Shown here: positions 1,740 to 61,423 of the stretch, one piece after another
How positions within the stretch are numbered: the stretch's first letter is position 1
Layout: each line of letters starts with the position of its first letter
NCBI GenBank assembly: GCA_964498425.1
Contig: CAZCGQ010000004.1
Location: 24,210-88,209 of the forward strand
Length of the DNA: 64,000 nucleotides
Direction of reading: 5' to 3'
Origin: an uncultured Gammaproteobacteria bacterium
GTDB taxonomy: Bacteria > Patescibacteriota > Microgenomatia > UBA12405 > JAHJSD01
Notes under the pieces: model-generated
What the model saw: only the letters and a program-made list of their open reading frames with translations
Told to the model about the DNA's origin: nothing
Database searches by the model: none
Made by a program: the position numbers and the translations under genes

Positions 1740-2678
1740 CTAAATCAGTTTCATTTGGCTGTCGGTGTGGCCGGAATCGAACTTGTCTTCAATCCGGCGG
1801 ACAAGCGAACGGAAATTCAAGCTTTCCAGGGAATTTTTTAATCGAATTAGCTTTTGGTCAGTAAATTCGGCATTTTCCCAATCAACTTCTATCGGAGCAT
1901 CGGTAACAATTTCGGCTAATTCATAGGAAAGTTTAGCCGATTCCATTCCTTTTTCAAGCTTTGCCCGAGTAGTGTCGGGAAACTCATCCAAATGGTCATA
2001 GATTTCCTCAACCGTGTCATATTTGTCAAATAACTTAGCCGCTGTCTTTGGTCCAATGCCATAAACACCGGGATAATTGTCCGAAGAATCACCGATCAAG
2101 GCCTTATAGTCAATCACCTGTTCCGGCTTAACCCCAAGTTTTTCCTCAACTTCCTCCGGCCCAACTAATTCCCCGCCGGAAATACCCCGGCCAAGAATAT
2201 ACAAACTTGTTTGGTCATCAACCAACTGCATCAAGTCCTTATCCCCCGTTACAATAATCACATTATCAACTTTTAACTTTTCACCAGCCTCGACGGCAGG
2301 CGGGCTTTTAACTTTTAACTGACGAGAAATCGTTCCCGCCAAATCATCTGCTTCATAGCCCTCAAGCATTTTCATTGGAATACTGGAATTTTCAAGCGTC
2401 TCCCTAGTCAAATCAATCTGGCTTTTCAGCTCATCTTCCATCTTCGGCCGATGGGCTTGATAACCGACAAACTTTTCGTGTCGAAAGGTCGGACCGGGAG
2501 CATCAAAACAACAAACCAGATAATCTGGTTCCAGCTCATCAATTGAAGAAAGAAGCATTGAAAAAAAACCATAAACAGCATTTATTGGCTTACCGCCCTG
2601 AGTTAGACTGTCCTTGGGTAAGGCGTGATAGGCACGGTGAAGCAGGGCATGGGAATCAATAATGACTAACTTCGACAT
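1740..2678 (-). CDS. 5'-3' exonuclease / flap endonuclease (Pol I N-terminal-domain homolog)
   Basis: N-terminal VIIDSHALLHRAYHAL and H3TH motif GIGPKTAAKLF. Carries an in-frame KVKSPPAVEAGEKLKV insertion (see findings). Confidence 0.8.
   Translation of the reverse strand: MSKLVIIDSHALLHRAYHALPKDSLTQGGKPINAVYGFFSMLLSSIDELEPDYLVCCFDAPGPTFRHEKFVGYQAHRPKMEDELKSQIDLTRETLENSSIPMKMLEGYEADDLAGTISRQLKVKSPPAVEAGEKLKVDNVIIVTGDKDLMQLVDDQTSLYILGRGISGGELVGPEEVEEKLGVKPEQVIDYKALIGDSSDNYPGVYGIGPKTAAKLFDKYDTVEEIYDHLDEFPDTTRAKLEKGMESAKLSYELAEIVTDAPIEVDWENAEFTDQKLIRLKNSLESLNFRSLVRRIEDKFDSGHTDSQMKLI
2281..2319. repeat. Miniature GC-rich in-frame insertion element, copy B (inside the exonuclease gene), flanked by AAAAGTTAAAAG direct repeats
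   Basis: tcaccagcctcgacggcaggcgggcttttaacttttaac. Its reverse complement matches 3211-3246 with about 3 mismatches. The flanks are ttttaactttt on both sides. Confidence 0.5.
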
Positions 2679-2734
2679 ATACTATTATATATAATCAATT
2701 TTCGAATGTTCAATTTTCAAATTTTCAAAAAAAT

Positions 2735-3664
2735 TTGGTTGTAAATCAGTCTCCACTTGCTGTCAACTATTTACTGCTTTATACTGAAATAGATATGGAA
2801 CATCACCCAATACCACAGCAAATCAGTTCATATGAATTCCGCCTCGTCGGCAGTATGACTTTGAAGCAATTTATTAAATTGGCTGGTGGTTTAATTATCG
2901 CTTTTTTGTTTTATAACAGCAAACTGATTTTCTTTATTAAATGGCCGATGGTAATCCTCTTTGCCAGCTTAGGAGCGGGATTAGCCTTTATGCCAATTAA
3001 CGAACAACCATTGGAAAAGTGGATTCTTGCCTTTTTCAACAGTATTTACTCTCCATCCATCTATATTTGGCAAAAACAGCCGCAGTTATTAGGGTTTGAA
3101 GAAGGTTTTTATCAACCCCAAGAAGGATCACCCATGCCAGAGGAACCAGCTGAGTCGGAAGATAAGGAACCAAGGCTCGAAGAATTTCTTGCAACTATTG
3201 ATGAAGATAGAAAAGTGAAAAGCCCGCCTGGCGTCGAGGCCGGTGATAAGGAAACTACGCCAGTCGAAGAAGAAGTGAAAGAACCAGAAACGGAACCAAA
3301 ACCAAGAATTGAGCTTGAGCGGCAAAAACCGCTGGAAGCAACAGCTGAAGCCGAATACGGAGAAATTCCGATGCCAAAAACACCTCAAACTCCAAACAAG
3401 GTTGTCGGCATGGTTTTCACTAGAGAGGGTAAAATGGTCGAAAATGCAATTATTGAAATTCAGGATAAAAACGGCAATGCGGTTAGAGCTTTAAGAACCA
3501 ACCGCTTGGGCCAATTTGAAACAGCCACACCTCTATCAAAAGGTGAATACCTAGTAACCGTTGAGAAGGAAGGGTATGACTTTGATATACTGAAAATAGA
3601 AGCTAAAGGTGAAGTTTTAGAACCATTAATTATTAAAACAAAAAACGGGAAGGGTAACGGTTAA
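2735..3664 (+). CDS. PrgI-like T4SS membrane protein with C-terminal carboxypeptidase-regulatory-like beta domain
   Basis: Two TM helices after MEHHPIPQQISSYEF (typical of PrgI-family proteins upstream of VirB4). The C-terminus GMVFTREGKMVENAIIEIQDKNGNAV...GEYLVTVEKEGYDF resembles a CarboxypepD_reg fold. The true start may be the internal Met at 2795. Confidence 0.45.
   Translation: MVVNQSPLAVNYLLLYTEIDMEHHPIPQQISSYEFRLVGSMTLKQFIKLAGGLIIAFLFYNSKLIFFIKWPMVILFASLGAGLAFMPINEQPLEKWILAFFNSIYSPSIYIWQKQPQLLGFEEGFYQPQEGSPMPEEPAESEDKEPRLEEFLATIDEDRKVKSPPGVEAGDKETTPVEEEVKEPETEPKPRIELERQKPLEATAEAEYGEIPMPKTPQTPNKVVGMVFTREGKMVENAIIEIQDKNGNAVRALRTNRLGQFETATPLSKGEYLVTVEKEGYDFDILKIEAKGEVLEPLIIKTKNGKGNG
3211..3246. 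repeat. Miniature GC-rich in-frame insertion element, copy A (inside the PrgI-like gene)
   Basis: aaaagtgaaaagcccgcctggcgtcgaggccggtga encodes KVKSPPGVEAGD. It is near-identical to the reverse complement of 2281-2319. Confidence 0.5.
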
Positions 3665-11041: not shown

Positions 11042-12181
11042 TTACAAATCCACTTTAACCGGCATGATGATGTGCAGCCAGTTTTTATCTGAAGGAATCT
11101 TGAACATTCCCGGAGTTAAGGCTTCATTAAATTCCATTTGAACCTGCTGTTCACTTGAAGGAACAGCCTTGAGAAAGTCAAGCATAAACCGATAGTTAAA
11201 GGCTATTTCTAAATCATCTCCTTCTATTTGTGCTCCAACCTCAGTTTTGTTTTCTCCAACACTGGGGGCATTGGAGGAAATGGCTACTTTACCTTTACCA
11301 ACATTAAATTTAACTACATTGGCTGACTCCCGGGCAAAAACAGATGCCATCCGAACAGACTGATGAAATTCTTCTTTGTCAACTAAAACCTTGGTTGAAG
11401 TTTCCTCGGGAATAATTTTTTGATATTCAGGGAACTCACCTTCAATTAATCGTGAGGTTAATTGTAAATCGGGCAGAACAAAAACCACTTGATTTTCATC
11501 TTCAGTTAAGCCAACTTTCAGTTCGCTTTCTCCAGATGCAAGCCTTACAATTTCTGTTAAACTACGGGCTGGAATTAAGAAATTACCTGAATTTTCTGTT
11601 TTGTCCATATTAACCTCAACACCTGAAACATCACGAAGAGATAATCGGTAACCATCAGTAGATACCATTCGATAACCGTCTTTTGAAAATTCCCAATTAA
11701 CCGCAGCTAAAACTGGTCGAGCGTCATCATCGGCAGCAGCAAAACCAACAAAGTTAACCGCTTCTTCTAAATTAGCTAGAGGTAAAGAGGCTGTTTTCCC
11801 CTGGTCAATTACTGGAATTTCTGGAAATTCTTCCGCATCCATTCCAGCGAATGAACTTTCCCCTTGACTGGAACTGATTTTAACCTGACCTTGTTTTACC
11901 GTTTCCAGTTCTAGCTTTCCGGGAGAAAGATAAGAAACAAATTCCGAAATTTCTTTAGCGGGGACAGTTATCTGGCCGGGCTTTTCTACTTTGGCATCAA
12001 TCCAATACTGAATACCAATATCAAGGTTAGTTGCTGATAACTTAAGCCGGTTATTTTTATCGGCTGAAAAAAGAACATTAGCCAAGACCGGAAGCTGAGG
12101 ACGAGATGCAATAAATCTTGAAACAACCGATAAACTTTGGTTAAGGTCTTCTTGAAGAACTTCTAATTTCATGTTAACCAA
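11042..12181 (-). CDS. dnaN: DNA polymerase III beta subunit (sliding clamp)
   Basis: MKLEVLQEDLNQSLSVVSRFI...LPVLANVLFSADKNNRLKLSATNLDIGI, typical DnaN N-terminus and length (379 aa). Confidence 0.85.
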   Translation of the reverse strand: MVNMKLEVLQEDLNQSLSVVSRFIASRPQLPVLANVLFSADKNNRLKLSATNLDIGIQYWIDAKVEKPGQITVPAKEISEFVSYLSPGKLELETVKQGQVKISSSQGESSFAGMDAEEFPEIPVIDQGKTASLPLANLEEAVNFVGFAAADDDARPVLAAVNWEFSKDGYRMVSTDGYRLSLRDVSGVEVNMDKTENSGNFLIPARSLTEIVRLASGESELKVGLTEDENQVVFVLPDLQLTSRLIEGEFPEYQKIIPEETSTKVLVDKEEFHQSVRMASVFARESANVVKFNVGKGKVAISSNAPSVGENKTEVGAQIEGDDLEIAFNYRFMLDFLKAVPSSEQQVQMEFNEALTPGMFKIPSDKNWLHIIMPVKVDL

Positions 12182-12403
12182 TCTTAACCGACAGACCCCT
12201 TTCTGTCAATGCTGTTTTTCCCACATTTTATTTACTCGGGGTTATTATAATATCACCTTGGAGGTGTAATTAGGTATACACCTTGGGAAATTTTCTTTTT
12301 CTTCATTTTCAGTGTTTAACCCAAAAGGATTACAAGGAAAAAATGGAGAATTATCGAAGCTGGAAATACATTGATTATGAATTAATTATGATAAAATTGG
12401 CCA

Positions 12404-13174
12404 ATGTTAAGAGAAATGCAACAATATATTGATAACGTATCTTGCCTGTGGAAAGAGCAACCCGAAGAAGATGTCTTACGGTATTCTGAATACCTTATGA
12501 GTCAGTTTTCTACCAATTCTCAAGTTACGGCATTCATATCAGGAATGATAAGAATGGCAATTGTCAGTGAAGATACTATTTATAAGCAAATAGCTACTGC
12601 ATGTTTTAGATCCGCAAAAAAACAAAACATCTTTCCGTTGGATTTGCTGCCAGTAAAACTCCCGCCCGAGGATGGAGGTAGTTCTCTACAAATATCTATA
12701 GAAAAAGCTTCAGAAGTTTCTAGTAAACAACAGGAGCAAGAAAAAACTGTTGGATTACTACATGGTCATTATAGATTACTGACTCCAGGCAATTTAGCTA
12801 ATATTGCACTAACAAATACTGAATGTGACGTTTTACTGCTCGGCATGGAAAGAGGTAGCAGAACAGCAAAATATAAAGGGGTCGATCCGGTTTATAGTGA
12901 CTGGGAGAGGGCAGTAATGGTTTTAGCTTCTGGACTTTCTGATTATTTAGTTTGGATCTCGAGATTAGATTATTCGAACGACGGCTATCGACGAATGGTT
13001 GAGGATATTTGTCCGAATATTTACTTTGGTAATGCCGGTGATCCGGTCTCGTTGCGAGAAGAAATGCAATTTAGAGCCAACACTATTGGAGCTGAATACC
13101 ATGAGATAAAAAGAATTAAAAGCTTCTCTTCAACAGATTTCAAGGAAGGAAATGTAATTGTACCAGTTCTATAG
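12404..13174 (+). CDS. Hypothetical protein, possible nucleotidyltransferase-like C-terminal half
   Basis: The C-terminal segment LLHGHYRLL...ERAVMVLASGLSDYLVWIS...YFGNAGD loosely resembles the cytidylyl/adenylyltransferase fold. The match is weak. Confidence 0.25.
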   Translation: MLREMQQYIDNVSCLWKEQPEEDVLRYSEYLMSQFSTNSQVTAFISGMIRMAIVSEDTIYKQIATACFRSAKKQNIFPLDLLPVKLPPEDGGSSLQISIEKASEVSSKQQEQEKTVGLLHGHYRLLTPGNLANIALTNTECDVLLLGMERGSRTAKYKGVDPVYSDWERAVMVLASGLSDYLVWISRLDYSNDGYRRMVEDICPNIYFGNAGDPVSLREEMQFRANTIGAEYHEIKRIKSFSSTDFKEGNVIVPVL

Positions 13175-13524
13175 CCTTACACACTTTATCATGGATAAAA
13201 AATATTACCTTAAAGTTTAAGTTTAATAATCATCTTGGGAGATTTTTTCTTTTCCCCATTTTGGATTTAAATGGAGTTAATAGATATTTGAGTATTTAAT
13301 ATAGTAGTAGTATTAGTATAGTCGGTGGAAATGTGAATTATCCTACTTTGGCTGGGCGTAACTAAGCTGTTGAAAAACAGATAAATGAAGCTTTTTCACC
13401 GAAAGAACAAAAAAGACGTAATTATTTATCTGATAATCTTCTACTTGTTATCGACTATAGGAAGTGGAAAAGGCAAAGTTTTTGGGGAGAAAATTGTGGA
13501 TAAATAAAGGGGTTTTGTGGAATA
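13175..13524. other. oriC: Candidate chromosomal replication origin (AT-rich, with DnaA boxes) between dnaA and the dnaN region
   Basis: Perfect DnaA box TGTGGATAA at 13495-13503 and degenerate boxes (CATGGATAA 13191-13199, TTATCCTAC 13337-13345, TTATCTGAT). Strongly AT-rich and directly downstream of dnaA. Confidence 0.35.
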
Positions 13525-14940
13525 CTAAGAATATATTGTCTTTCTCATTTCCAGAATATCGTGACGAATTTCTTGATTGGTGGAAAACAAGCGGTCAACT
13601 TTTTCTTCAGAGTGCATAATCGTTGTATGATCCCGTCCGCCAAGAATTTCCCCAACTCTTTTTAATGGATATTCCAGTTCTTTTCGTAAAAGGTAAGCAG
13701 CTATGTGCCTAGCTGTTGCCACTTCTTTCTTTCGCGATCTCCCTTTAACTTCTTTGGTTTTCAAATCATAATGGTTGGCAACAACAGACAAAATTCTTCG
13801 ATAGGATATTGATTTTCTTTTTTTAGATTGTTTTTTGATCCCAAAAAAGTTTTTCACATAGCCGAGGTTTGGCTGTTGATTATCGGCAGTAGCTGCGGCC
13901 GCAATTTGGGTCAATTTTCCTTCTAATTCTCGGGCATTGGATTCGATTGTTTCAGCAATAAAGGTGATGGCATCTTCGGTGATGTTAATTCCTCGCTGTT
14001 CAGATTTTTGTTTAAGGATTGCTACCCGCATTTCAAAATCCGGTGACTGGACGTCAACTGTCAGCCCGCCCATGAATCGGGAAGTTAGTCTATCCTTAAG
14101 GGGTTGAACTTCTTCCGGTTTACGGTCAGAGGTTAAAATAACTTGTTTCTGGTTAAGGTAGAGGTCGTTAAAAGTGTGGAAAAACTCATCTTGAATGTAT
14201 TCTTTACCGGCGATGAATTGGACATCGTCAACTAGGAAAACGTCGACTTGACGGTATTTGTGCTTAAATTTATTTGTTGTTTGATCTTTCAATGAAGCGA
14301 CGAGTTCATTTCCAAAAGTTTCTGCTGAAATGCACAGAACTTTCCAATCTGGGTTGTCTTGACTGAGTTGATTACCAATAGCGTGGAGAAGATGTGTTTT
14401 ACCAACACCGACCCCGCCCCAAAGAAAAAGAGGGTTATAGGCGGTTCCTGGTTGTTTAACAATTCCTTGGGCGGCAGCAAAGGCGAAGTGATTGGTATCG
14501 CCGACAACAAAGTTGCTAAAGTTGAATCGTGGACTAAGCCCAGAGCGTCTATTAAAAGAGTTGTTTGGGGCTAGTGGCTGGCCGTTAGCAGATGCAGAAA
14601 CATTGTGTTTCGAGCCTTGCCTCGTCGAAGCCTTTGGCGAAGGCGGGTTTTCTTGAAAAAGCGGCCCCGTCTCACCCTTTTTCTCCTTTGGCTTTTCCAC
14701 CTCGAAAATTAAAGTGGATTGTTCACCAGTTTGTCTATCTAGGGCGGATTGAACTAGACTGGCATAGCGTTTTTTTATCAGGTCTGCCAGGTAAGAGTTA
14801 GGGCAAACAATTGTTGCTTTTTTGTTTTTGTAGTTTTTAAGCTCGGTGTTAGAAAAAAGAGTAGTAAATATTGTTTTAGACAAAGAAAGTTTAAGTTCGG
14901 CTAAAACACTAGACCAAAGTGAATCTAAATTTTGTTTCAC
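13525..14940 (-). CDS. dnaA: Chromosomal replication initiator protein DnaA
   Basis: AAA+ Walker A GVGKTHLLHAIGN and C-terminal DnaA signature helix ...HTTIMHSEEKV. 471 aa. Confidence 0.9.
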   Translation of the reverse strand: MKQNLDSLWSSVLAELKLSLSKTIFTTLFSNTELKNYKNKKATIVCPNSYLADLIKKRYASLVQSALDRQTGEQSTLIFEVEKPKEKKGETGPLFQENPPSPKASTRQGSKHNVSASANGQPLAPNNSFNRRSGLSPRFNFSNFVVGDTNHFAFAAAQGIVKQPGTAYNPLFLWGGVGVGKTHLLHAIGNQLSQDNPDWKVLCISAETFGNELVASLKDQTTNKFKHKYRQVDVFLVDDVQFIAGKEYIQDEFFHTFNDLYLNQKQVILTSDRKPEEVQPLKDRLTSRFMGGLTVDVQSPDFEMRVAILKQKSEQRGINITEDAITFIAETIESNARELEGKLTQIAAAATADNQQPNLGYVKNFFGIKKQSKKRKSISYRRILSVVANHYDLKTKEVKGRSRKKEVATARHIAAYLLRKELEYPLKRVGEILGGRDHTTIMHSEEKVDRLFSTNQEIRHDILEMRKTIYS

Positions 14941-14947
14941 AAAATTT

Positions 14948-15045
14948 AATTTCGAAATCCGAATATCGAAATTCGAAAAGTTTTGAATTTGATAATTTTT
15001 AATTTGATCATTGTTTCGTATTTCGTGCTTCGTGTTTCGGGTTTG
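14948..15045. repeat. Intergenic TTCGAAAT / CGTGCTTCG repeat-family copies upstream of dnaA and rnpA
   Basis: aatttcgaaatccgaatatcgaaattcgaaaagtttt and gtttcgtatttcgtgcttcgtgtttcgggttt. Segment 14961-14984 is the exact reverse complement of 61424-61447. Confidence 0.55.
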
Positions 15046-15141
15046 GAGCCGATTATTAAATCGGCGAGGGGGTTATTAACATTGTAAGATTTTTTTCCAC
15101 AATTGACAAGAGGCAAAATGATTTGTGTTATAATTCTACTC

Positions 15142-15483
15142 ATGGCTTTGCCAAAAGAATTCCGATTGAAGAAGCAGAAAGAATTTGATAAGGTAAAGCA
15201 GCAAGGCCAAACGGTTCACTCCTCCTTGTTTGTTGTTTCATACATCGACAATCAGAGTGATGGACCGAAATTTGGATTTGTTGTCTCGAAGAAAATTGAC
15301 AAAAAGGCAGTAGTTAGAAACAAAATTCGGCGGAGGCTAAGCGAAGCAATTCGATGTTTGTTTCCGCAGTTAAAAAAGGATATCTACGCTGTTTTCTTGG
15401 TCAAGAAAAGAATAAAAGAGGCAAATTTTAAAGAAATTAAAGAGGAAATCGAGAGTATATCCCAATTATTAGGGGAAAAGTAA
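15142..15483 (+). CDS. rnpA: RNase P protein component
   Basis: KEFRLKKQKEFDKVKQQGQTVHSSLFVV...FGFVVSKKIDKKAVVRNKIRRRLSEA, typical RnpA. The start is placed at the internal ATG at 15142; the ORF-track start at 15103 lies inside a promoter-like TTGACA...TGTTATAAT. Confidence 0.75.
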   Translation: MALPKEFRLKKQKEFDKVKQQGQTVHSSLFVVSYIDNQSDGPKFGFVVSKKIDKKAVVRNKIRRRLSEAIRCLFPQLKKDIYAVFLVKKRIKEANFKEIKEEIESISQLLGEK

Positions 15484-15516
15484 ATGCGATAATAATTCGG
15501 AGAATATGCGGTAAAT

Positions 15517-16275
15517 ATGTGGCAGACACTATTATTACAACCATTATTAAATGCCTTAATTGCTTTTTATCACTTGTTTGGTAATTTAGGAGCAGCAATT
15601 ATTGGTTTAACCGTTAGTTTACGCACTTTGCTTTTACCGTTAACTTTACCAACTTTGAAAACAGCCGAAAAAATGAAGGAGATTGCTCCTAAGTTGGAAA
15701 AATTAAAAAAGAAACACAAGGACGATAAAGAAGCTTTAGCCAAGGCTCAAATGGCTCTTTACCGAGAAGCGGGTGTTAAGCCGTTCGCCGGTTTTTTACC
15801 TCAAATCCTTCAAATTGTTATTTTAATTGCTTTATATCAGGCCTTCCGGCGGGTATTGGGAGATAATGGTGGAGTGGCTAAGGTTAATGACCTTCTTTAT
15901 TCTTTCTTGAAGCTTCCGGAGTCGGCAGAGTTAAGCTTGCGATTTCTATATTTAAAATTAACGGAACCGGATACGATAGCCCTGTTTGGCCGGCAGGTAC
16001 CAGGCCCCTTTTTGATTGGAGCGGCAGTTACTCAATTTTTATCCGCTAGGGTAATGATGCCGGCAGCAGAAAAGGAAAAGGAAGTAGCTAAGGAGACCGA
16101 GGATAAGGCAGATGACTTTTCTTCGATGATGAGAACTCAGTCAATGTATTTATTCCCAATAATGACTCTCTTTATTGGTATGCAGTTCCCATCGGGTTTG
16201 GTCCTTTATTGGTTTGTTTTTAGTTTGTTTAATTTGGCCCAACAGTTTATAATTCGGAAATTAAAAGCGAAGTGA
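15517..16275 (+). CDS. yidC: Membrane protein insertase YidC (short form)
   Basis: Multi-TM protein with YidC/Oxa1 conserved blocks (LLPLTLPTLKTAEKMKEIAPKLEKLKKK...GFLPQILQIVILIALY). Confidence 0.8.
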   Translation: MWQTLLLQPLLNALIAFYHLFGNLGAAIIGLTVSLRTLLLPLTLPTLKTAEKMKEIAPKLEKLKKKHKDDKEALAKAQMALYREAGVKPFAGFLPQILQIVILIALYQAFRRVLGDNGGVAKVNDLLYSFLKLPESAELSLRFLYLKLTEPDTIALFGRQVPGPFLIGAAVTQFLSARVMMPAAEKEKEVAKETEDKADDFSSMMRTQSMYLFPIMTLFIGMQFPSGLVLYWFVFSLFNLAQQFIIRKLKAK

Positions 16276-16334
16276 CTCCTGAGAGGTGTGCGCATGCACT
16301 CCTCTGAGGTGTTGCGTAGCGAAATATAAAAAAT

Positions 16335-16793
16335 ATGGAAAAAGAAAATATTGAATTGGTTCAAAAATTAGCCAAAGAACTATTTGATAACCTTGATCAG
16401 GAGGTTGAGTTGGAAGTAGTTGAAGAAGACGAGGCAATCAAGATAAACATTTCCTCGGAAGACCCGGGGCCGTTAATTGGCTTTCACGGGAAGACACTAT
16501 CTTCTATACAGCTAATTTTAGGCCTGATGGTTTTTCAAAAGCTTGGGGAATGGCAGCAAATTGTTGTTGATGTGGATAATTATCGTCAAGAACAAATAAA
16601 GCGTTTGCAGAAAATTGCTTTAAATTCAGCTAAAAGGGCAAAGTTTTCCGGCCGGCCTGTTGCTTTATCGCCAATGACCCCTTTTGAACGAAGAATAATT
16701 CATACCACCTTAAATGACGACCCATCGGTTACTACCGAATCCGAAGGTGACTCGCCGTACCGTTACGTTGTCATCACTCCAAAAACCAGCTGA
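16335..16793 (+). CDS. jag: Jag/KhpB-like RNA-binding protein (KH + R3H domains)
   Basis: C-terminal R3H signature FERRIIHTTLNDDPSVTTESEGDSPYRYVVITP. Conserved position after yidC. Confidence 0.7.
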   Translation: MEKENIELVQKLAKELFDNLDQEVELEVVEEDEAIKINISSEDPGPLIGFHGKTLSSIQLILGLMVFQKLGEWQQIVVDVDNYRQEQIKRLQKIALNSAKRAKFSGRPVALSPMTPFERRIIHTTLNDDPSVTTESEGDSPYRYVVITPKTS

Positions 16794-16814
16794 CCGCGTC
16801 ATATATAATAGTAT

Positions 16815-17264
16815 ATGAAGAAAATCGTTAATAAAAATGCCTATCGCAGGTATGAGGTTGAAGACACTCTTGAAGCAGGGATTGCTTTGACAGGAGCGGA
16901 GGCCAAGGCTATCCGAACCCGAGGGATTGAGCTTAGGGATTCCTTTGTTAAGATAATTGAGGGGGAACCCTACCTAATTAACGCCGTTATTCATCCTTAT
17001 CCCTTTGCCCGTCGGGAAGATCAGGATATGGCTAGAAGCAGGAAATTGCTTTTGAAGGAAGGCGAAATTAAGAAACTCATTGAAAAGAAAGGGCAAAAAT
17101 TGACGATTGTACCTCTTGCGTGTTATACTAAGGGCCGTTGGATCAAGGTACTTTTAGGTATTGGGAAGAGAAAGACAAAGCACAAGCGTAAACAAGATTT
17201 AATAGAGAAAGAGATAGATAGAAAAATTCGAAGCACGAAGCTCGAATTTCGAAACAATAATTAA
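16815..17264 (+). CDS. smpB: SsrA-binding protein SmpB
   Basis: AYRRYEVEDTLEAGIALTGAEAKAIRTRGIELRDSFVKI..., canonical SmpB. A tmRNA gene follows directly. Confidence 0.85.
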   Translation: MKKIVNKNAYRRYEVEDTLEAGIALTGAEAKAIRTRGIELRDSFVKIIEGEPYLINAVIHPYPFARREDQDMARSRKLLLKEGEIKKLIEKKGQKLTIVPLACYTKGRWIKVLLGIGKRKTKHKRKQDLIEKEIDRKIRSTKLEFRNNN

Positions 17265-17316
17265 ATTTAAAATAAAAATTTCAAAACTTTTCGGGTTTCG
17301 AATTTCGGATTTAAGG
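17226..17316. repeat. Intergenic repeat-family copies (CGAAGCACGAAG, TTTCGAATTTCGGATTTAAG) between smpB and ssrA
   Basis: aattcgaagcacgaagctcgaatttcgaaacaa at 17226-17256 and aaacttttcgggtttcgaatttcggatttaagg at 17284-17316. The latter resembles 61424-61500. Confidence 0.55.
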
Positions 17317-19620: not shown

Positions 19621-19668
19621 TTCTCGCCGTGCCCGCCAAAACTGGAGTCAAAGGCGACTGTGGATGGG
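19621..19668. repeat. ~48-nt GC-rich repeat element (copy 1), also present at 29686-29734
   Basis: ttctcgccgtgcccgccaaaactggagtcaaaggcgactgtggatggg versus ttctcgctgtgcccgccaaaactggagccaaaggcgactgtgggtgggg (about 94% identity). Confidence 0.6.
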
Positions 19669-20793: not shown

Positions 20794-22185
20794 TTATCCC
20801 TTAATGTTTCCGATTGGGTGGAATTTGGCAATTGGGGTGGAAATGCCAGCGTCACTGACGGCTTTGATCACTTCGTCAATATCTTTGTAAGCGTGACCGC
20901 CTTCTTCGGCTAGCCCAGAGTAAGAGGCGGATTTGATATAGATCCCTTCATTTTCTAATTGTTGCTGTAATTGCTTCCCTTGTACTTCTTTTTTTGCCTG
21001 GGCGCGGGACTTAGTCCGGCCGGCTCCATGTGAAGTTGAACCAAAGGTTAATTTTTCCGCTTTCTTTGTTCCCAATAGTAAATAGGACGCGGTTTCCATT
21101 GACCCTCCGATAATAACTGGCTGACCGTCAAACGCCCGCGTCGCCCCCTTCCGGTGGACTAATATTTTGTTTTCTTCTTCTTTGTCACTTTTCACTTTTA
21201 ACTTTTCACTTTTAACTTCCAATTTTGCCATATTATGCGTCACGTCATAAACCAAATCCAACCCCAGCTTTTCCGGCTTAACTTGAAACACTTTGCCGAA
21301 AACTTGACGAGTTTTGTGCATTATTAACTGCCGATTGGCAAAGGCATAATTGGCGGCAGCATTCATTGCCTTAAAGTATTCTTGGCCTTCAGAAGTGTTA
21401 AACTCGGCATAAGGCATTGGCTCTTTATCGAGCTTTTTGGTGTAGTCAGTCGCTACTTGGTGGCCCAAACCTCTTGACCCGCAGTGGATCATTACCGTTA
21501 TCTGGCCCTCTTTTTCAATTCCTAATTCTTTGGCTTTTTTATCGTCAAATATTTTGGTTACCTTTTGAACTTCCAGAAAATGGTTACCGCTGCCGAGCGT
21601 TCCTAATTGCGGCCGGCCGCGGTTAATTGCTTTATCGGAAAGAGCATCCGGCTCAGCCGGCTTCATTTTCCCGCCATCTTCAGCGTGGCTCAAGTCTTCT
21701 TCTCGACCGTACCCCTTCTTAACGGCCCATTCCATTCCTTCAATTAAAACATCTTTTAATTCATCAGTTGTTAGTCTTATCCAGCTTTTTGAGCCTAGTC
21801 CTGCCCCAGCGATGTCAAACAAGCGATTAACTATTTTTTTAAGTTTTGGTTGAACGTCCTTTTCCATTAATTGGGTAGAAAGAAGTCTTACGCCGCAGTT
21901 GATGTCAAACCCAACAGCACCGGGAGAAATTACTCCGCCCTTGTTTGAATTGGTGGCAAAAACACAGCCAATTGGAACATCGTAGCCAATGTGAGTATCG
22001 GGCATTGCCCAAACTGGTTTAACCACTCCCGGCAAACTCGCCGCATTAGCCAGTTGATCAAAAACTTCCGGTTCAACCCCATTAATTATCTTCTTTGTCC
22101 CAATCACCCTCGCCGGAACTCGCATTCCCTCTTTAAAATCCTTTGCCAACTCCCAAACCGTCTCCGAAATCTGCTTTAACTCCAT
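20794..22185 (-). CDS. rtcB: RNA-splicing ligase RtcB
   Basis: Conserved RtcB blocks NCGVRLL, HCGSRGLGHQVATDY, VHRKGATRAF, SHGAGR. Contains an in-frame KVKSEKLKVKSDK tract (21184-21220) built from AAAAGTGAAAAG repeats. Confidence 0.85.
   Translation of the reverse strand: MELKQISETVWELAKDFKEGMRVPARVIGTKKIINGVEPEVFDQLANAASLPGVVKPVWAMPDTHIGYDVPIGCVFATNSNKGGVISPGAVGFDINCGVRLLSTQLMEKDVQPKLKKIVNRLFDIAGAGLGSKSWIRLTTDELKDVLIEGMEWAVKKGYGREEDLSHAEDGGKMKPAEPDALSDKAINRGRPQLGTLGSGNHFLEVQKVTKIFDDKKAKELGIEKEGQITVMIHCGSRGLGHQVATDYTKKLDKEPMPYAEFNTSEGQEYFKAMNAAANYAFANRQLIMHKTRQVFGKVFQVKPEKLGLDLVYDVTHNMAKLEVKSEKLKVKSDKEEENKILVHRKGATRAFDGQPVIIGGSMETASYLLLGTKKAEKLTFGSTSHGAGRTKSRAQAKKEVQGKQLQQQLENEGIYIKSASYSGLAEEGGHAYKDIDEVIKAVSDAGISTPIAKFHPIGNIKG
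21184..21220. repeat. AAAAGTGAAAAG / AAAAGTTAAAAG tandem tract inside rtcB (same flank motif as the mini-element, without the GC core)
   Basis: gtcacttttcacttttaacttttcacttttaacttcc, reverse complement gaagttaaaagtgaaaagttaaaagtgaaaagtgac. Encodes EVKSEKLKVKSD in frame. Confidence 0.45.
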
Positions 22186-25304: not shown

Positions 25305-26383
25305 AAGTTCCGACCGGTATGAACGGCTTAACGACCGAACAACTGTCTACGACCTCTCACCCGGTGAAATTGAAATACCGGTAAAGATGCCGGTTAGTGA
25401 CGGCAGGACAGAAAGACCCCGTGGAGCTTAACTGAGGCTTAACGTTGGGAAAAATACTTTAATTGTTGAGAATAGGTGGGAGCCTTCGGGCGCCAGTGAA
25501 ATACCACTCTTTGAGGTATTGGACTCTAACCAATGTTCACTGCAAACGTGAACTGGGACGGCGTTTGGTTGTCAGTTTGACTGGGGCAGTCGTCTGCTAA
25601 AAAGTAACGCGGACGTACAAAGGTTGGCTTGGTCCGGCTAGAAATCGGACTGTAAGTATAAAGGCAAAAGCCAGCTTAACTGCGAGACCGACGGGTCGAG
25701 CTTGCAAAGCCACAAATATTTTGTTTGTGGGGATGCAACCGTGTACCTTTGGTACATGGAGGTGCGAAAGCAGGTCTTAATGATCTTCCGTCCCTTGTGG
25801 ATAGGGGCGGGACTTAACGGATAAAAGCTACCCCGGGGATAACAGCGTGGTCGGGCCCGATAGTCCATATTGACGGCTCGGATCGCGACCTCGATGTCGA
25901 CTTGGCGCATCCTGGCCCTGAAGAGGGGGCCAAGGGTTGGTCTGTTCGCCCATTAAAGCGCTGCGTTAGTTGGGTTCAGAACGTCGTAAGACAGTTCGGT
26001 CCATATCCGCCGTCACCGCACGATTTTTGAGAGGAGCTCACTACAGTACGAGAGGACCTAGTGGGAGGAACCTCTGGTGTGCCTGTTGTTCTGTCAAGAG
26101 CATTGCAGGGTAGCCATGTTCCTTCGGGATAACCGCTGAAAGCATCTCAAGCGGGAAGCCCACCTCAAGATAAGAAATCGATGACCGATTTATCGGTCTG
26201 AAGGCCTCCAGGAGACTACTGGTTATAGGTAGGAGGTGGAAGACCAGCAATGGTTTAAGCTGACCTATTCTTATTGGCCGACCTAGAATTTATTTTACAT
26301 CCGGTGCCACGTACCATTCGGTGCATGGCTAGCGTGATGCACTGTATACTATGTCATCAATACTTGTTGAGAGACAAGAAAAT

Positions 26384-26522
26384 CCGAAGCACGAAGCACG
26401 AAATCCGAAACAAATCCTAATATCAAATTATTAAGTTTTAAACATTAGAATTTATAATTTTGAAATTGTTTAGACCAAGTCAGACTTGGTTTCGAGTTTC
26501 GAAATTCAAATTTCGGATTTTT
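26384..26522. repeat. Intergenic repeat-family copies downstream of 23S rRNA (CGAAGCACGAAGCACGAAATCCGAAACAA ... TTTCGAGTTTCGAAATTCAAATTTCGGATTT) plus the ACCAAGTCAGACTTGGT hairpin
   Basis: aaaatccgaagcacgaagcacgaaatccgaaacaa at 26384-26420, hairpin gaccaagtcagacttggtt at 26473-26491, ggtttcgagtttcgaaattcaaatttcggattttt at 26486-26522. Confidence 0.55.
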
Positions 26523-27747: not shown

Positions 27748-28305
27748 GTGACCAAAGCAGGAAATTTACCAAAAGGAAAATACATTCTATACCGCGGCGA
27801 GCCGCGGGAAGTGGTTAAGCGAACTAAGGCCCATCACGGTCGGGGTTCAGCCCAAGCTCGTTTATGGCTGAAAAGTTTAATTTCCGGCAATACAATTCAA
27901 GAAGGTTTTACCGTTGATGAAGAACTAGAAGAGATTGATATCACCTTTCGTTCCGGCCAGTATTTGTATAAGCAGGGCGATACATTTATCTTCATGGACC
28001 AGGAAACCTATCACCAATACGAAGTTGATAAGAAAGTGATTGGTAACGCTGGAAACTATTTAATTGAAGGAGAAAAATATCAGTTAGGAATTTATGATGA
28101 CGAAGTTATTTCAATTCGCCTGCCTCAAAAGGTTGTTTTAGAAATCAAGGAAACAACTGCCGGGGTAAAGGGAAATACTGTTTCCGGTGCAACCAAACCG
28201 GCTGTGCTTGAAACCGGTTTGACTGTAAAAGTTCCGCTTTTTATTAAGCAAGGCGAAAAAATAATCGTCAATACCGACTCCGGCGAATACGTCTCCCGTG
28301 CATAA
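27748..28305 (+). CDS. efp: Elongation factor P (GTG start)
   Basis: KAGNLPKGKYILYRGEPREVVKRTKAHHGRGSAQARLWLKSLISGNTIQEGF with the conserved KxxG modification loop. 185 aa. Confidence 0.85.
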   Translation: MTKAGNLPKGKYILYRGEPREVVKRTKAHHGRGSAQARLWLKSLISGNTIQEGFTVDEELEEIDITFRSGQYLYKQGDTFIFMDQETYHQYEVDKKVIGNAGNYLIEGEKYQLGIYDDEVISIRLPQKVVLEIKETTAGVKGNTVSGATKPAVLETGLTVKVPLFIKQGEKIIVNTDSGEYVSRA

Positions 28306-28406
28306 ATTGTTATCTTTTTTCTCGACCAGCCTTGCCGGCAGGCAGGTCGACGGAAAATAACTTCCTCGTTATGGGATCTTGCATTTAACTTTGATAGAAT
28401 CTGATT
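28263..28406. repeat. Direct repeat copy 1: efp 3' end plus downstream promoter-like intergenic region. It is duplicated at 29620-29784.
   Basis: atcgtcaataccgactccggcgaat...atcttttttctcg ... acggaaaataacttcctcgttatgggatcttgcatttaactttgatagaatct. About 85% identical to copy 2, apart from a swapped 25/47-nt middle segment. Confidence 0.7.
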
Positions 28407-29239: not shown

Positions 29240-29616
29240 TTTTTGTTGATACCAATTATTTTCTACGTTTACTTTTAAAAGACGTTGATGAACAACATCA
29301 AAAAGCAAAAAAGCTTTTTGAACAAGCCGCTAAAGGAAAAAAACAGGTTTTTACTTCAATAATAGTTTTTTTTGAAATATATTGGGTATTATCTTCATTT
29401 TATGAACAAAATAAAGAAGAAGTGATCTCGATATTAAATAAAATTTTAGCAATGAAATTTATTGAGTTGGAAGAAAGAGATCTGCTTCTAACCGCATTAG
29501 AACTATTTAAAAACGAAAATATTGATCTAGAAGATGCTTATAATTTGGTTTACGCTCGATCCAACGAATCCTCAAAATTTAATACTTTCGACAAAAAGCT
29601 TAAAAGTTTATTTTAA
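29236..29616 (+). CDS. PIN-domain toxin (VapC-like)
   Basis: MIFVDTNYFLRLL N-terminal acidic-residue motif and 126-aa size typical of VapC. ATGA overlap with the antitoxin. Confidence 0.65.
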   Translation: MIFVDTNYFLRLLLKDVDEQHQKAKKLFEQAAKGKKQVFTSIIVFFEIYWVLSSFYEQNKEEVISILNKILAMKFIELEERDLLLTALELFKNENIDLEDAYNLVYARSNESSKFNTFDKKLKSLF

Positions 29617-29619
29617 GAT

Positions 29620-29784
29620 TATCGTCAATACCGACTCCGGCGAATCTGTCTTCAGAGCATAAGTTGTCATCTTTTTTCTCGCTGTGCCCGCCAAAACTGG
29701 AGCCAAAGGCGACTGTGGGTGGGGTATGACGGAAAATAACTTCCTCGTTATGGGATTTTGCACTTAGCTTTGGTAGAATTTCTT
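29620..29784. repeat. Direct repeat copy 2 (degenerate efp 3'-end pseudo-copy plus promoter-like region) carrying the 48-nt GC-rich element at 29686-29734
   Basis: attatcgtcaataccgactccggcgaatctgtcttcagagcataa ... acggaaaataacttcctcgttatgggattttgcacttagctttggtagaattt. It precedes the kinase ATG at 29785 just as copy 1 precedes the Nudix ATG at 28407. Confidence 0.7.
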
Positions 29785-54992: not shown

Positions 54993-56863
54993 GGTTGAAT
55001 TATAGCCAAGCTTTGTTTACTTCACAAGTATGTTCTATAATGACTTTAATGAAATTCCAGACCGAAGTTAAGCAGGTTTTGGGTACGCCGGACCAAGGCG
55101 CGTGGAGTCAAGTCCATCACTTTATCCCCAATCAAGAAGAAAAGTTTCTTAAACGTGGGGAATTGATTCTTTTGGTAAGTTTAGGAGAAATAGATGAGGA
55201 ACAACCAACAGCGAGCGTGGGCAGGGAAATTATATCGCGGTTTCATGAGGAATATTACGGCTCACTTGATAAAAAACCAATGGCAGCGTTGGAAGAGGCA
55301 GTTAATAAAGTTGCTAAGGAAAAATCGCAATATTTTGACAAGCCGGAAGAAATAAGTTTAATCAGCTTGGCTCTTTGGAAAAATATTGCTTATTTAGTTG
55401 TTTATCATCGAGGGAAAATTCTTCTTCGTCGGCAGGGAAAAACGGTGGATTTAGTTCAAACTGAAAATGGCCAGCCAATATCTGCTTCTGGCTTTATTCA
55501 ACCGGGCGATATTTTTATTTTAGGTACAACGGATTTTTTTGAAAAAATGCCGCAAACAATGATCCCATCAGGTATAGCTACCGAAGATATTGAGAGGATG
55601 TCAGAAATATGGGGGCCGGTTGTTCATGCGCGTGAAGATCAAGGTCGATTGGGAGTAGTGATGATTGAAATTGGAGCGGAGGAAAAAAAGATTGAGTTTG
55701 TTTCCGCTGATATGGAGGATAAGCCAAAGAAAATCAAAAAAAAACCAAAGTTGAAACTGCCTAAAATTAAGTTTGGTTGGTTGACAGGTTTCTTTAAAAA
55801 AATTTCAGGTTTATCAATTGCCATTGGTTTTTTAGCTTTGCTTGGTATTTCTATTTTTTTTGGCTGGAAAAAGCGTCGAGACCAAAAAAGATTAGATCAA
55901 GTGTCGGTTTTATCCACCCAAGTTGAGGAGAAGATTTCTAATGCCAATTCCATTCGAAATTTGGATCCAGAAGAGAGTATCAATTTGCTAAATCAGGCTG
56001 GTGAAATTAATCAGGAGCTTAAGGCTTATTCTCCGGCTCAAGCTAATACATATAAGCAAAGAATAGAGGAAATAAAGAGTAATTTGGGAGAAAAGGCTTT
56101 ATCTCCGGAGATGTTTTATGATTTGCATTTGGTTGCGGAGGGTATTGAAATTTCCTCGGTTTATACTGCTGATCAACAGGCTACAATTTTGGATACAAAG
56201 GGAAAGCGGTTGATTAGTGTTAATTTGTCTGATAAATCCGCCGAAATTGTTGCCGGCGGGGAGCCCCTCTCGCAATCAGGTTTAGTTGTAACATCTACGG
56301 ATAGAAATTATATCGTTACTGACAATATTTATTGGATTGATGATGAAGAAGTTGAGGAGTTAATTGACTTGGAAGATGATTATGAGCCGCAGTCAGCAGA
56401 TGGTTGGTTGGGGTCGCTTTATTTGCTTGACCGTGGGCAGGAGGAAATTTGGAAATTTCCCTCAATTACCGGGGGCTTAGGTGACGCGCGGCCTTGGCTA
56501 AATTCTAAGAGCGGTTTAGATTTTGATCAGCTTGTTGATATGGCGATTGACAGTAATATTTGGTTGTTGAGTAAAAATGGTCAGATTTATAAGTATTTGT
56601 CTGGGAACAGACAGGACTTGGAAATGGAAACACCTTCGGGGATTGGTGAGGCTAGATATTTAGCTCTTGCTGATGAAGCAGAAAGACTTGCTCTTTGGGA
56701 TAAAGGAAGCAAGATCGTTTGGCTTTTTTCAAAGCAGGGAACATTTTTAGCCCGCCAGCCGGTAGAAATGGAGAGTGTTCGGGGATTAGCGATTTCCTCT
56801 GACGGGACAGAAGTCTTTTTGTTTGGAGCTGATAAAATATACCGGGTTGAATTTCAATTGTAG
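54956..56863 (+). CDS. Hypothetical membrane protein (N-terminal domain vaguely PP2C/SpoIIE-like, central TM, C-terminal beta-rich domain)
   Basis: 635-aa ORF. Single TM GLSIAIGFLALLGISIFFGW mid-protein. The true start is probably downstream of 54956 (the 5' end overlaps the minus-strand gene). Confidence 0.3.
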   Translation: MNLRRDKMDQQPWLNYSQALFTSQVCSIMTLMKFQTEVKQVLGTPDQGAWSQVHHFIPNQEEKFLKRGELILLVSLGEIDEEQPTASVGREIISRFHEEYYGSLDKKPMAALEEAVNKVAKEKSQYFDKPEEISLISLALWKNIAYLVVYHRGKILLRRQGKTVDLVQTENGQPISASGFIQPGDIFILGTTDFFEKMPQTMIPSGIATEDIERMSEIWGPVVHAREDQGRLGVVMIEIGAEEKKIEFVSADMEDKPKKIKKKPKLKLPKIKFGWLTGFFKKISGLSIAIGFLALLGISIFFGWKKRRDQKRLDQVSVLSTQVEEKISNANSIRNLDPEESINLLNQAGEINQELKAYSPAQANTYKQRIEEIKSNLGEKALSPEMFYDLHLVAEGIEISSVYTADQQATILDTKGKRLISVNLSDKSAEIVAGGEPLSQSGLVVTSTDRNYIVTDNIYWIDDEEVEELIDLEDDYEPQSADGWLGSLYLLDRGQEEIWKFPSITGGLGDARPWLNSKSGLDFDQLVDMAIDSNIWLLSKNGQIYKYLSGNRQDLEMETPSGIGEARYLALADEAERLALWDKGSKIVWLFSKQGTFLARQPVEMESVRGLAISSDGTEVFLFGADKIYRVEFQL

Positions 56864-56886
56864 GGACAATAGTAGGATTGTCCCTG
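56861..56886. repeat. Palindrome TAGGGACAAT-agtag-GATTGTCCCT (copy 1 of 3) at the junction between the hypothetical gene and the SpoIID-like gene
   Basis: tagggacaatagtaggattgtccctg. Related to the perfect 28-bp palindrome at 60569-60596. Confidence 0.6.
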
Positions 56887-56895
56887 CGCATAACA

Positions 56896-58617: not shown

Positions 58618-58620
58618 TTG

Positions 58621-58646
58621 TAGGGATAATTCTAGGATTGTCTTTA
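58621..58646. repeat. Degenerate copy of the TAGGGACAAT..GATTGTCCCTA palindrome (copy 2 of 3) between the SpoIID-like and ftsH stops
   Basis: tagggataattctaggattgtcttta. Confidence 0.45.
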
Positions 58647-60515: not shown

Positions 60516-60568
60516 TTAGTATAACACAAGTTTAGCCGAAGGCTGAACGCATAATGCTAAACGCCTTT

Positions 60569-60596
60569 GTAGGGACAATCCTAGGATTGTCCCTAC
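60569..60596. repeat. Perfect 28-bp palindrome GTAGGGACAATC-CTAG-GATTGTCCCTAC in the divergent ftsH / 60622 promoter region (copy 3 of 3)
   Basis: gtagggacaatcctaggattgtccctac is exactly self-complementary. Confidence 0.7.
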
Positions 60597-60621
60597 GGAA
60601 TATCAGACTTTAGTCTGCGTT

Positions 60622-61359: not shown

Positions 61360-61423
61360 TGAAGAAAACACGAAGCACTAAGTACGAATTACTAAACAAT
61401 ATTAAAATTTTAATTATTAATTA

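Follow-up and report, generated by a model that had tools for sequence, protein, structure and literature searches.

Probable Relics of a 21-Nucleotide Palindromic Element in Two Divergent Genes of a Patescibacteria Bacterium

Introduction

Why two unrelated, neighbouring genes on opposite strands should contain the same GC-rich sequence, each in its own sense frame, is the question raised by a 64,000-nt stretch of contig CAZCGQ010000004.1 (positions 24,210 to 88,209 of the forward strand; assembly GCA_964498425.1), here called the window. The two genes are divergently oriented and code for a stand-alone, FEN-like 5'-3' exonuclease (1740–2678, minus strand; Pfam PF02739 and PF01367, 5_3_exonuc_N and 5_3_exonuc) and for a PrgI-family membrane protein with a C-terminal CarboxypepD_reg domain (2795–3664, plus strand; Pfam and linker alignment). 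Homologues of the window proteins carry the names Woesebacteria, Shapirobacteria, Gottesmanbacteria and Patescibacteria group, and the window would accordingly belong to the candidate phyla radiation/Patescibacteria. A first reading of the letters, hereafter the original prediction, had identified these genes and rtcB correctly, as judged by Pfam, and had proposed a miniature GC-rich element inserted in frame, similar in behaviour to the Rickettsia palindromic elements (RPEs). Our analysis leads us to consider the feature, with a probability of roughly 0.6, as two relics of one kind of palindromic repeat element, very small and non-autonomous, comparable to RPEs and to repetitive extragenic palindromes (REPs) and belonging to a new family. 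The original prediction was right in substance (a miniature GC-rich palindromic element, in frame, RPE-like) and wrong on the size of the unit and on a target-site duplication, as detailed below.

Results

The Inverted Pair in the Window

The 36-nt pattern at 3211–3246 (plus strand) of the PrgI-like gene has a sole other match in the window, at 2281–2316 (minus strand) of the exonuclease gene, with 33 of 36 bases identical, and none of 100 dinucleotide-preserving shuffles matched. The predicted sharing of a GC-rich sequence by two unrelated genes on opposite strands thus withstands exact alignment, with no such match expected by chance; the predicted number of mismatches (about three) was correct as well, and only the end coordinate, originally placed at 2319, had to be shortened by 3 nt. 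The repeat search returned an inverted repeat of 40 nt (2277–2316 and 3211–3250), with arms 90% complementary and 894 nt apart. As had been proposed, both copies encode the same peptide in the sense frame of the host gene, KVKS-PP[A/G]VEAG-[E/D]K.

Both GC-rich cores are variants of a canonical 21-mer, CCCGCCTGCCGTCGAGGCAGG, composed of a 4-nt tag (CCCG), a 6-bp stem (CCTGCC paired with GGCAGG) and a 5-nt loop (GTCGA), with a folding energy of the hairpin of -11.0 kcal/mol. The exonuclease core (2284–2304, minus strand) reads CCCGCCTGCCGTCGAGGCTGG, encodes (S)PPAVEAG and has one mismatch to the canonical form, A19>T, which is synonymous (GCA>GCT) and breaks a stem pair. The core of the PrgI-like gene (3223–3243, plus strand; CCCGCCTGGCGTCGAGGCCGG) encodes (S)PPGVEAG and has two mismatches, C9>G and A19>C, each breaking a stem pair, the latter being synonymous too (GCA>GCC). 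The hairpins of the window copies are accordingly weaker (≈-7 kcal/mol). Because the stem-breaking substitutions include synonymous third-position changes, the hairpin seems to be no longer maintained in the window copies, and both would now evolve as coding sequence. A diversity-generating retroelement was rejected, the three differences between the copies being G/T, G/C and C/T and no reverse transcriptase domain being found in the adjacent genes.

The exonuclease core is embedded in an (AAAAGTK)n heptamer array. Its upstream half (TTAAAAGTTAAAAG; 2305–2318, minus strand) is the same array found in the empty-site orthologs L001, L002 and L168, and was detected at 2305–2320, with period 7, by Tandem Repeats Finder (TRF). 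In the downstream half (TGAAAAGTTAAAAGTT; 2268–2283, minus strand) the repeat phase is unbroken across the insertion point, with a period-7 score of 0.90 at the junction. The PrgI-like core, which lies in a K/E/P-rich linker of variable length in the alignment, is preceded by the A-rich heptamer flank AAAAGTGAAAAG (3211–3222, plus strand; repeat search and ortholog comparison) and followed by TGATAAG (3244–3250, plus strand), a degenerate heptamer unit that corresponds to TGAAAAG at the exonuclease copy. Between the two copies these flanks are identical at 11/12 and 6/7 bases.

Empty Sites and Size of the Inserted Unit

The insert peptide is absent from all 39 aligned exonuclease homologues, and the two closest ones, P0002 (89% identity) and P0003 (82%), read QLKVKS-EKLKVEN. 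The empty site in the DNA of L002 is CAGTTAAAAGTTAAAAG^TGAAAAGTTAAAAGTTGAAAATGTG (^ marks the insertion point), and the window carries the same string plus exactly CCCGCCTGCCGTCGAGGCTGG at that point; when the window is compared with L001 and L002 together (empty junction CAGTTAAAAGTTAAAAG^TGAAAAGTTAAAAG), the gap measures exactly 21 nt and nothing is duplicated. Including this one, three independent comparisons of filled and empty sites differ by exactly 21 nt, the second being offered by paralogous repeats in L052 (at 5016 and 5354, 340 nt apart; CATTCG^TAGTTTCG) and the third by the region upstream of dnaK in L146 and L016 (GATTYG^TAGCTGA). The inserted unit is therefore 21 nt and not the 36 nt originally predicted, and the three pairs show, at the level of sequence comparison, a block appearing and disappearing as an exact unit without target duplication.

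The direct repeats AAAAGTTAAAAG that bracket the exonuclease core (2270–2281 and 2305–2316) had been interpreted as a target-site duplication. This was ruled out, since the distance between the two repeats, 35 nt, is not divisible by 3, since they lie in different reading frames, and since they occur in orthologs lacking the core. They form part of a microsatellite whose (AAAAGTK)n heptamer units are equally numerous in empty sites, and an array of the same type (5.9 heptamer copies) lies in the same loop of L168, a 64%-identical exonuclease. A DDE-transposon derivative of the MITE kind (miniature inverted-repeat transposable element) was likewise excluded, as the three pairs of empty and filled sites differ by exactly 21 nt without duplication, and so was a conserved protein motif, which would not be missing from the listed exonuclease, PrgI and RtcB homologues; the peptide is not common to orthologs.

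These comparisons support a recent in-frame insertion as the origin of the GC-rich core of the exonuclease, as had been predicted, and the element would have entered the array after the split from the 89%-identical relative. In the AlphaFold model of the exonuclease (mean pLDDT, predicted local distance difference test, 86.8) the sole internal segment below 50 is residues 125–133, SPPAVEAGE, modelled as coil between helix 110–123 and strand 139–144. The model therefore supports a position of the inserted peptide in a disordered surface loop, a point that the original prediction had raised for modelling.

At the PrgI-like site the closest ortholog (L001, protein P0122; 83% identity) reads DRKEKS-EKLKKQS-DRET where the window protein reads DRKVKS-PPGVEAG-DKET, that is, 21 nt of heptamer array stand in place of the 21-nt core and the total length is equal. 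This comparison involves one close ortholog, whose surrounding linker is ≈70% identical at DNA level, and it is compatible either with the core having replaced three heptamer units or with the sister lineage having gained those units.

Distribution of the 21-mer

A scan of one genome per Genome Taxonomy Database species with CCCGCCTGNCGTCGAGGCNGG retrieved 72 loci, and a JGI/ENA metagenome scan 88 further loci. In genomes below ≈52% GC nearly all matches were of one form, CCCGCCTGCCGTCGAGGCAGG, at ≈55 distinct sites and in at least six phyla, against a chance expectation of ≈0.1 matches in the low-GC part of the collection, as we estimated from base composition. The genome search thus revealed a family of repeats dispersed in many unrelated genes and genomes. 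Matches in high-GC genomes have the appearance of chance matches or of normal coding sequence, an example being a conserved FPPAVEAGADAV stretch of several actinobacterial genes, by eye putatively HisF.

Carriers were found among the Patescibacteria (Levy-, Morani-, Berkel- and Saccharibacteria and unnamed groups), the Bacteroidota (including Flavobacteriia, Saprospiraceae and Chitinophagaceae), Ignavibacteria and Melioribacter, Omnitrophota, Acidobacteriota and Baltobacteraceae. They also include a low-GC gammaproteobacterial metagenome-assembled genome, the isolate Bowmanella (L030) and the complete long-read chromosome OY969116 (L072), and one filled locus was assembled independently from different samples (L008 and L053). 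The window holds two copies. The 21-mer spans seven codons and has no stop codon in any of the six frames, so that a gene receiving it is never truncated.

IMG/VR yielded essentially no instance of the element (one GC-rich chance match), and only chance-level matches (E ≥ 0.9) were found among PLSDB plasmids; a phage or plasmid origin was rejected on these grounds. A known structured RNA family was also rejected, as Rfam 15 gave no match at gathering score other than tRNA and 5S in 19 carrier loci, the best hit over the element having E = 0.44. In the literature, searched by sequence (17-mer and 13-mers), by the peptide PASTAGG and by topic, neither the 21-mer nor its association with heptamer arrays was found described, a prior description being possible.

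Insertion Sites

Target statistics, computed after family collapse (49 sites), gave G at position -1 in 34 sites (69%) and A at position +2 in 30 (61%), while T or A occupies position +1 in 38, little above the ≈59% A+T of the loci. The target consensus is thus G^WA, a weak sequence preference.

The context of 53 sites was compared with 2022 control positions. Short tandem repeats occur in the flanks of 12/53 sites and of 1.2% of the controls; the period is 7 in ten of these 12 sites, a period not favoured among the controls. Perfect stems of at least 5 bp closing a loop of at most 10 nt surround the site in 23% of cases versus 8% of controls (2.7-fold), and 16/53 sites versus 4% of controls have one or the other feature, array or hairpin loop (odds ratio 10.5, p = 5e-10). 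A general fold-based test of insertion within a hairpin loop did not discriminate (45% of sites, 47% of controls). The repeat phase runs on across the insert not only in the window exonuclease, as described above, but also in L067, (ATTTCGG)n, L131, (AAAATTG)n, and L164, (AAAAATC)n. The element thus strongly prefers heptamer microsatellites and, to a lesser extent, loops of existing hairpins. It is found in loops of other common hairpins, e.g., GTCATTCCCGCG^AAGGCGGGAATC in L048 and L063.

Four copies (L048, 753; L063, 1644; L153, 1637; L162, 186) were seen in the loop of widespread hairpins of the form GTCATT-stem-loop-stem-AATC, and the corresponding loop position in L048 (1733) and L126 (4095) is taken by another 21-nt hairpin, CCTGCCTGTCCGGTAGGCAGG. 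Downstream of a tRNA-Gln gene in L084 (662–1066) lie partial copies of the 3' half of this gene and then a 74-nt tandem duplication with the element in each unit, possibly a remnant of an integration site.

With respect to transcription, 28 of the 35 orientable copies are oriented alike (17:4 in ORFs, 11:3 between co-directional genes), and when a copy stands between co-directional genes it is, in 10 of 14 cases, closer to the 3' end of the upstream gene. The 148 ORFs neighbouring the copies contain no recurring transposase or integrase family.

Copies Inside Genes

Within ORFs of at least 100 aa lie 21 of the 55 sites, the other 34 (62%) being outside. The host genes, assigned by Pfam, are mutually unrelated and mostly essential, and about one third serve replication or repair, as reported for intragenic REPs (PMC3733652). 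They code for DNA polymerase I/PolA (L014 and L080), RecG, UvrC, PriA, RadA, PheT, CysS, PurA (adenylosuccinate synthetase), RimM, the E1 component of pyruvate dehydrogenase, an ABC transporter that includes a C39 peptidase domain, an RfbB-like dehydratase and a glycoside hydrolase family 2 enzyme, in whose L127 copy a sorting-tail domain of the type IX secretion system was recognised.

When the window pair is included, 22 in-gene copies are available, of which 16 are read as PASTAGG, three as PPAVEAG (two of them in the window), two as PACRRGR and one as LPRRQAG, the other two frames not being used. No mechanism acting on DNA senses the frame and every frame is open; therefore this skew shows in-gene copies that are, to all appearances, translated and filtered by selection on frame, with only benign peptides surviving. 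The surviving copies are mostly in the harmless frames PASTAGG or PPAVEAG. A distribution of 16:3:2:1:0:0 likewise rules out an assembly artefact.

The rtcB Array and Related Hairpins

The rtcB gene of the window (20794–22185, minus strand) carries AAAAGTGAAAAGTTAAAAGTGAAAAG at 21188–21213. It is part of an (AAAAGTK)n heptamer array without GC core (21180–21218, minus strand; TRF period 7, 5.4 copies), which encodes EVKSEKLKVKSDK. Both the presence of the repeats without the core and the comparison with Pyrococcus RtcB (1uc2), which is 7 residues shorter at exactly the array loop, agree with the original prediction. The latter had regarded the repeat as an empty or excised site or as a seed. 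We find an unoccupied array of the type preferred by the element plausible, given that in other lineages related hairpins of 21–43 nt lie in the same RtcB loop, inside heptamer arrays. A fresh footprint is contradicted, the array being base-for-base identical in the 84%-identical rtcB ortholog L167, and an excision scar finds no support.

The related hairpins form a wider family. In L164, a 56%-identical relative, the exonuclease has a 42-nt member in the same loop, inside an (AAAAATC)n array. In RtcB of two other lineages the loop of the window rtcB array is occupied by family members with CAAANNN heptamers on their flanks, ≈43 nt long in L165 and 21 nt long (read as LPRRQAG) in L166. The combination of the same protein loop, a heptamer array and a hairpin insert is therefore recurrent. 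The longer related members have the same termini as the 21-mer. Other 21-nt hairpins with CCTGCC...GGCAGG ends in carrier loci are CCTGCCTGCCGGCGAGGCAGG and CCTGCCTGTCCGGTAGGCAGG, longer forms are CCCGCCTGCC-...-GGCGGGCAGG, and ≈20 further CCTGCC...GGCAGG variants were counted in 0.5 Mb of carrier loci. Some genomes of the candidate phyla radiation (CPR) contain a composite of ≈58–60 nt, TTCGTAGATTCGTWTTTCATTCG-core-TAGTTTCGCATCGG, at eight or more sites, and its core-less form is also present.

The array loop is hypervariable among CPR RtcB proteins, with 0 to ≈50 extra residues. Many other lineage-specific inserts occur in this loop of the RtcB homologues P0253, P0266, P0274 and P0279, and other ones in the loop of the exonuclease insert in the homologues P0005, P0007, P0009 and P0017. 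Examples are a ≈40-aa insert in P0253, GC-rich in appearance, and peptides of the KIQSSNIQKLKK type, which look heptamer-encoded. It appears that, in CPR bacteria, both loops generally accumulate short insertions.

Discussion

Origin of the Window Pair and Possible Mechanism

A relic pair of a mobile palindromic repeat, our preferred interpretation, leaves two routes to the second window copy. It may well have been made, and we lean slightly this way, by template switching or short-patch conversion between arrays of like sequence, in either direction, involving a patch of ≈40 nt (flank, core and flank). Local copying is suggested because the copies are 894 nt apart and inverted, have similar flanks, use the same minority frame and are of opposite fork polarity. 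A second independent insertion into the same kind of array is a serious possibility as well. With oriC at ≈15 kb, between dnaA and rnpA, and the GC-skew minimum near 12 kb, both copies lie to the left of oriC.

As to the family as a whole, the block would move as a folded single strand, with an enzyme acting in trans. An HUH/Y1 transposase (histidine-hydrophobe-histidine motif, single catalytic tyrosine) of the IS200/IS605 or RAYT (REP-associated tyrosine transposase) type would be the obvious candidate, because enzymes of this type join and release DNA seamlessly, recognise a short tag beside a hairpin and produce a biased orientation. HUH/Y1 chemistry targets single-stranded DNA at replication forks. 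The exposure of single strands would make heptamer arrays and hairpin loops favoured sites, and heptamer arrays are the commonest slippage-prone repeats in prokaryotes according to Mrazek 2007, as summarised in PMC4679880. In its boldest form, which we put forward tentatively and give somewhat less than an even chance, the 21-mer could represent the core of mobile DNA of an ultra-small class not described before, and the smallest transposable unit known, present across at least six phyla. It would be moved in trans by an enzyme recognising the CCCG-tagged hairpin, with heptamer microsatellites and hairpin loops, as exposed single strands, serving as landing pads, and, being 3 x 7 nt and stop-free, it could colonise essential genes.

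Several observations weigh against a mobile palindromic element. No mobilising enzyme came to light, with no enrichment of transposases or integrases among the 148 neighbouring ORFs and with 64 kb of this genome in view, and the REP tags GTAG and CGTC are absent from the ends of the element. Exact copies number 1–4 per genome in the scans, far fewer than classical REPs, diverged copies not being countable. All low-GC matches except Bowmanella L030 are metagenome-assembled genomes, and the scan pattern had 19 fixed bases, so that the identity across phyla is partly an ascertainment effect. The two window copies are of opposite orientation relative to the replication fork, and therefore a strictly strand-specific single-strand insertion cannot explain both. 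Finally, the ≈58–60 nt composite is not easily explained if the 21-nt core alone is recognised.

Alternative Explanations

The element might have no dedicated enzyme and spread solely by replication template switching or short-patch ectopic conversion at heptamer arrays and hairpins. The polymerase would slip or stall, the nascent end would anneal elsewhere by microhomology, copy the block and return. The enrichment of sites in heptamer arrays, slippage-prone according to Mrazek 2007 as summarised in PMC4679880, fits such a process, as do the lack of target duplication and of a transposase nearby. At the window itself it would account for an inverted pair 894 nt apart with flanks in common and opposite fork polarity, and for a block that stands in the PrgI-like gene in place of exactly three heptamer units with no change in length. 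Yet most sites (PurA, CysS, RecG, RfbB, PheT, etc.) have no mutual flank homology while the ends of the block are constant within 1 nt, a G^WA target preference and an orientation bias of 80% are hard to reconcile with it, and the presence of the same 21-mer in at least six phyla requires a vehicle. As the sole mode of spread we regard it as unlikely. Less probable still is that the hairpin is mainly a functional RNA or DNA signal (stabilising or terminating mRNA, or binding a protein) selected between genes, with the in-gene copies as by-products. All 21 bases are conserved across phyla, and the stem-loop CTGCCGTCGAGGCAG presumably resembles the Cas6f-bound hairpin of type I-F CRISPR repeats (CTGCCGTATAGGCAG). 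Moreover, 62% of the sites are outside ORFs, and the intergenic copies have an 11:3 orientation bias and lie near the 3' end of the upstream gene, as REPs do (PMC3733652). On the other hand, no Rfam family reached the gathering threshold or E < 0.4, and the window copies lost stem pairs by synonymous changes, so no such function is kept here. A signal of this kind would leave the entry into genes unexplained, and would complement a mobility mechanism rather than replace one.

Two further explanations have very little probability. In one, the 40-nt arms would be the recombination sites of an invertible segment (2277–3250) comprising the shared promoter region and the 5' ends of both genes, whose inversion would swap the N-terminal parts in frame. 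The arms are indeed inverted, lie 362 and 415 nt inside divergent genes and encode the same peptide in the same frame; nonetheless, the divergent order of the exonuclease and PrgI-like genes is kept in L001, L002 and L164, which have no arms, the products would be fusions of one half of a nuclease with one half of a membrane protein, no recombinase gene adjoins and the 21-mer is single at dozens of other sites. In the other, just as remote, the feature would be a sequencing or assembly artefact, or nothing more than a conserved or low-complexity stretch of protein. An artefact would suit the facts that metagenome assemblies make up nearly all low-GC carriers and that 21 nt is a common minimum k-mer size, whereas the skewed use of frames, the point substitutions that separate copies, the filled locus assembled from independent samples (L008 and L053), and the occurrence in a complete long-read chromosome (OY969116) and in an isolate (L030) all speak against one. 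A protein feature is contradicted by the absence of the peptide from all 39 exonuclease homologues and from every listed PrgI or RtcB homologue.

Comparison with Known Systems

RPEs (Ogata et al. 2000, 2002; also mentioned in PMC3733652) are selfish palindromes found in frame in unrelated, often essential genes, with the encoded peptide on the protein surface and with copies that decay in place. The 21-mer resembles them in its in-frame insertion into unrelated, often essential genes, in its surface position and in its decay in place, so that the parallel drawn by the original prediction is apt as a description of behaviour (in frame, unrelated genes, surface loop). It differs from them in that RPE-1 is ≈100–150 nt long, is known only from Rickettsia and has no sequence similarity to the element, which is 21 nt long and occurs in several phyla. 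Elements of the IS200/IS605 group, including palindrome-associated transposable elements and the RAYT-mobilised REP doublets (REPINs), share seamless insertion and excision and, on our interpretation, a hairpin with a short adjacent motif, an orientation bias tied to replication and non-autonomous derivatives moved in trans; they have two end hairpins and a defined target of 4–5 nt, in contrast to the single 17-nt hairpin and G^WA preference found here, where the ORFs neighbouring the copies also revealed no Y1 transposase. The GC clusters of yeast mitochondria and other coding palindromes of organelles are 30–50 nt or longer and have AT-rich target duplications. They are similar as short GC-rich palindromes spreading in AT-rich genomes and tolerated in coding sequence, and dissimilar in being organellar, longer, accompanied by target duplications and unrelated in sequence.

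REPs and their composites (bacterial interspersed mosaic elements) are imperfect palindromes of 20–40 nt with a 4-nt tag, a stem of 6–9 bp and a short loop (PMC3733652), an anatomy shared by the 21-mer. Some REPs are intragenic, often in replication and repair genes, and some families are common to distant taxa (Di Nocera et al. 2013, PMC3733652). Here too most copies are intergenic, near the 3' end of the upstream gene (34/55 outside ORFs; 10/14), some are in genes and read through, notably in replication and repair genes, the family extends across distant taxa and there is no target duplication. Unlike REPs, which start with GTAG or CGTC, the element starts with the tag CCCG and ends with GGCAGG, CGTC occurring only inside, at the stem-loop junction; few exact copies per genome were counted instead of hundreds; it is found in CPR bacteria, Bacteroidota and Ignavibacteria while REPs are mainly from Proteobacteria; no flanked RAYT gene (REPtron) is in view; and its marked preference for heptamer microsatellites is unreported for REPs. 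Flanks of the types (AAAAGTK)n, (AAAAATC)n, (ATTTCGG)n and (AAAATTG)n are heptamer microsatellites of an ordinary sort, comparable to known heptanucleotide repeats (the short tandemly repeated repetitive sequences of cyanobacteria; TAACTGA, PMC4679880; Mrazek 2007), although these account for the flanks only and not for the GC-rich block. Heptamers are described in PMC4679880 as the commonest class of long simple repeats in prokaryotes, occurring in genes in sets of three units.

The element is unusual in its size, its phyletic spread and its landing-site preference. If our interpretation is true, it represents a sequence-defined selfish DNA of seven codons, small enough for the essential genes of streamlined genomes, with a clear signature of selection on the reading frame and an insertion rule open to test (G^WA, heptamer arrays, hairpin loops). 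Phyla in which no family of the REP/RPE kind is described would gain one, and the hypervariability of surface loops in CPR proteins would find a possible mechanism. A connection would also be made between heptamer microsatellites and a specific inserted sequence, one not found in the literature searched, and a defined 21-mer is a handle for finding the mobilising enzyme via co-occurrence across genomes.

Other Repeats and Neighbouring Genes

Period 7 was the commonest in the TRF analysis of the whole window (13/47 rows, plus four rows of period 14). The chromosomal origin region (11042–17264) comprises dnaN and dnaA on the minus strand followed by rnpA, yidC, jag/KhpB and smpB on the plus strand; its dnaA–rnpA spacer (14940–15103) is dense in the 7-nt repeats TTCGAAA and TGTTTCG and shows, by eye, no obvious canonical DnaA box. 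Intergenic modules made of inverted pairs of CGAANNN heptamer arrays around an AT-rich spacer of ≈40 nt were found at 14955–15044, 17213–17312, 26369–26513 and 61355–61500 (families D1, D12 and I1–I6), and similar CGAAATC arrays flank the 21-nt element in the Ignavibacteria loci L067 and L112. At 61449–61481 a 32-nt GC-rich island, CCCCGGTCTCGCCGAGGCGAAGCCGAGGGCGG, with GCCGAGG present twice, interrupts an ATTTCGN heptamer array; the layout is like that of the exonuclease and PrgI-like copies and the sequence is different.

Direct repeats of 48–67 nt with 87–94% identity (D3, D6, D7 and D8), such as 28258–28400 versus 29615–29779 and 19621–19668 versus 29676–29723, link the 3' ends and spacers of several genes. 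In relatives (L002, 4134–4831 and 5957–6680), a PhdYeFM/PIN toxin-antitoxin pair lies between the PrgI-like and exonuclease genes, with a nucleotidyltransferase/HEPN pair downstream, and L168 (875–4420) encodes a VirB4/TraG-like ATPase with an intein and a LAGLIDADG domain. Finally, three perfect palindromes headed by GTAG, TTGTAGGGACAATCCTAGGATTGTCCCTAC, are located at gene ends in the window (56858–56888, 58618–58648 and 60567–60597) and resemble classical GTAG-type REPs; if they are REPs, they would imply a REP-handling machinery in this genome.

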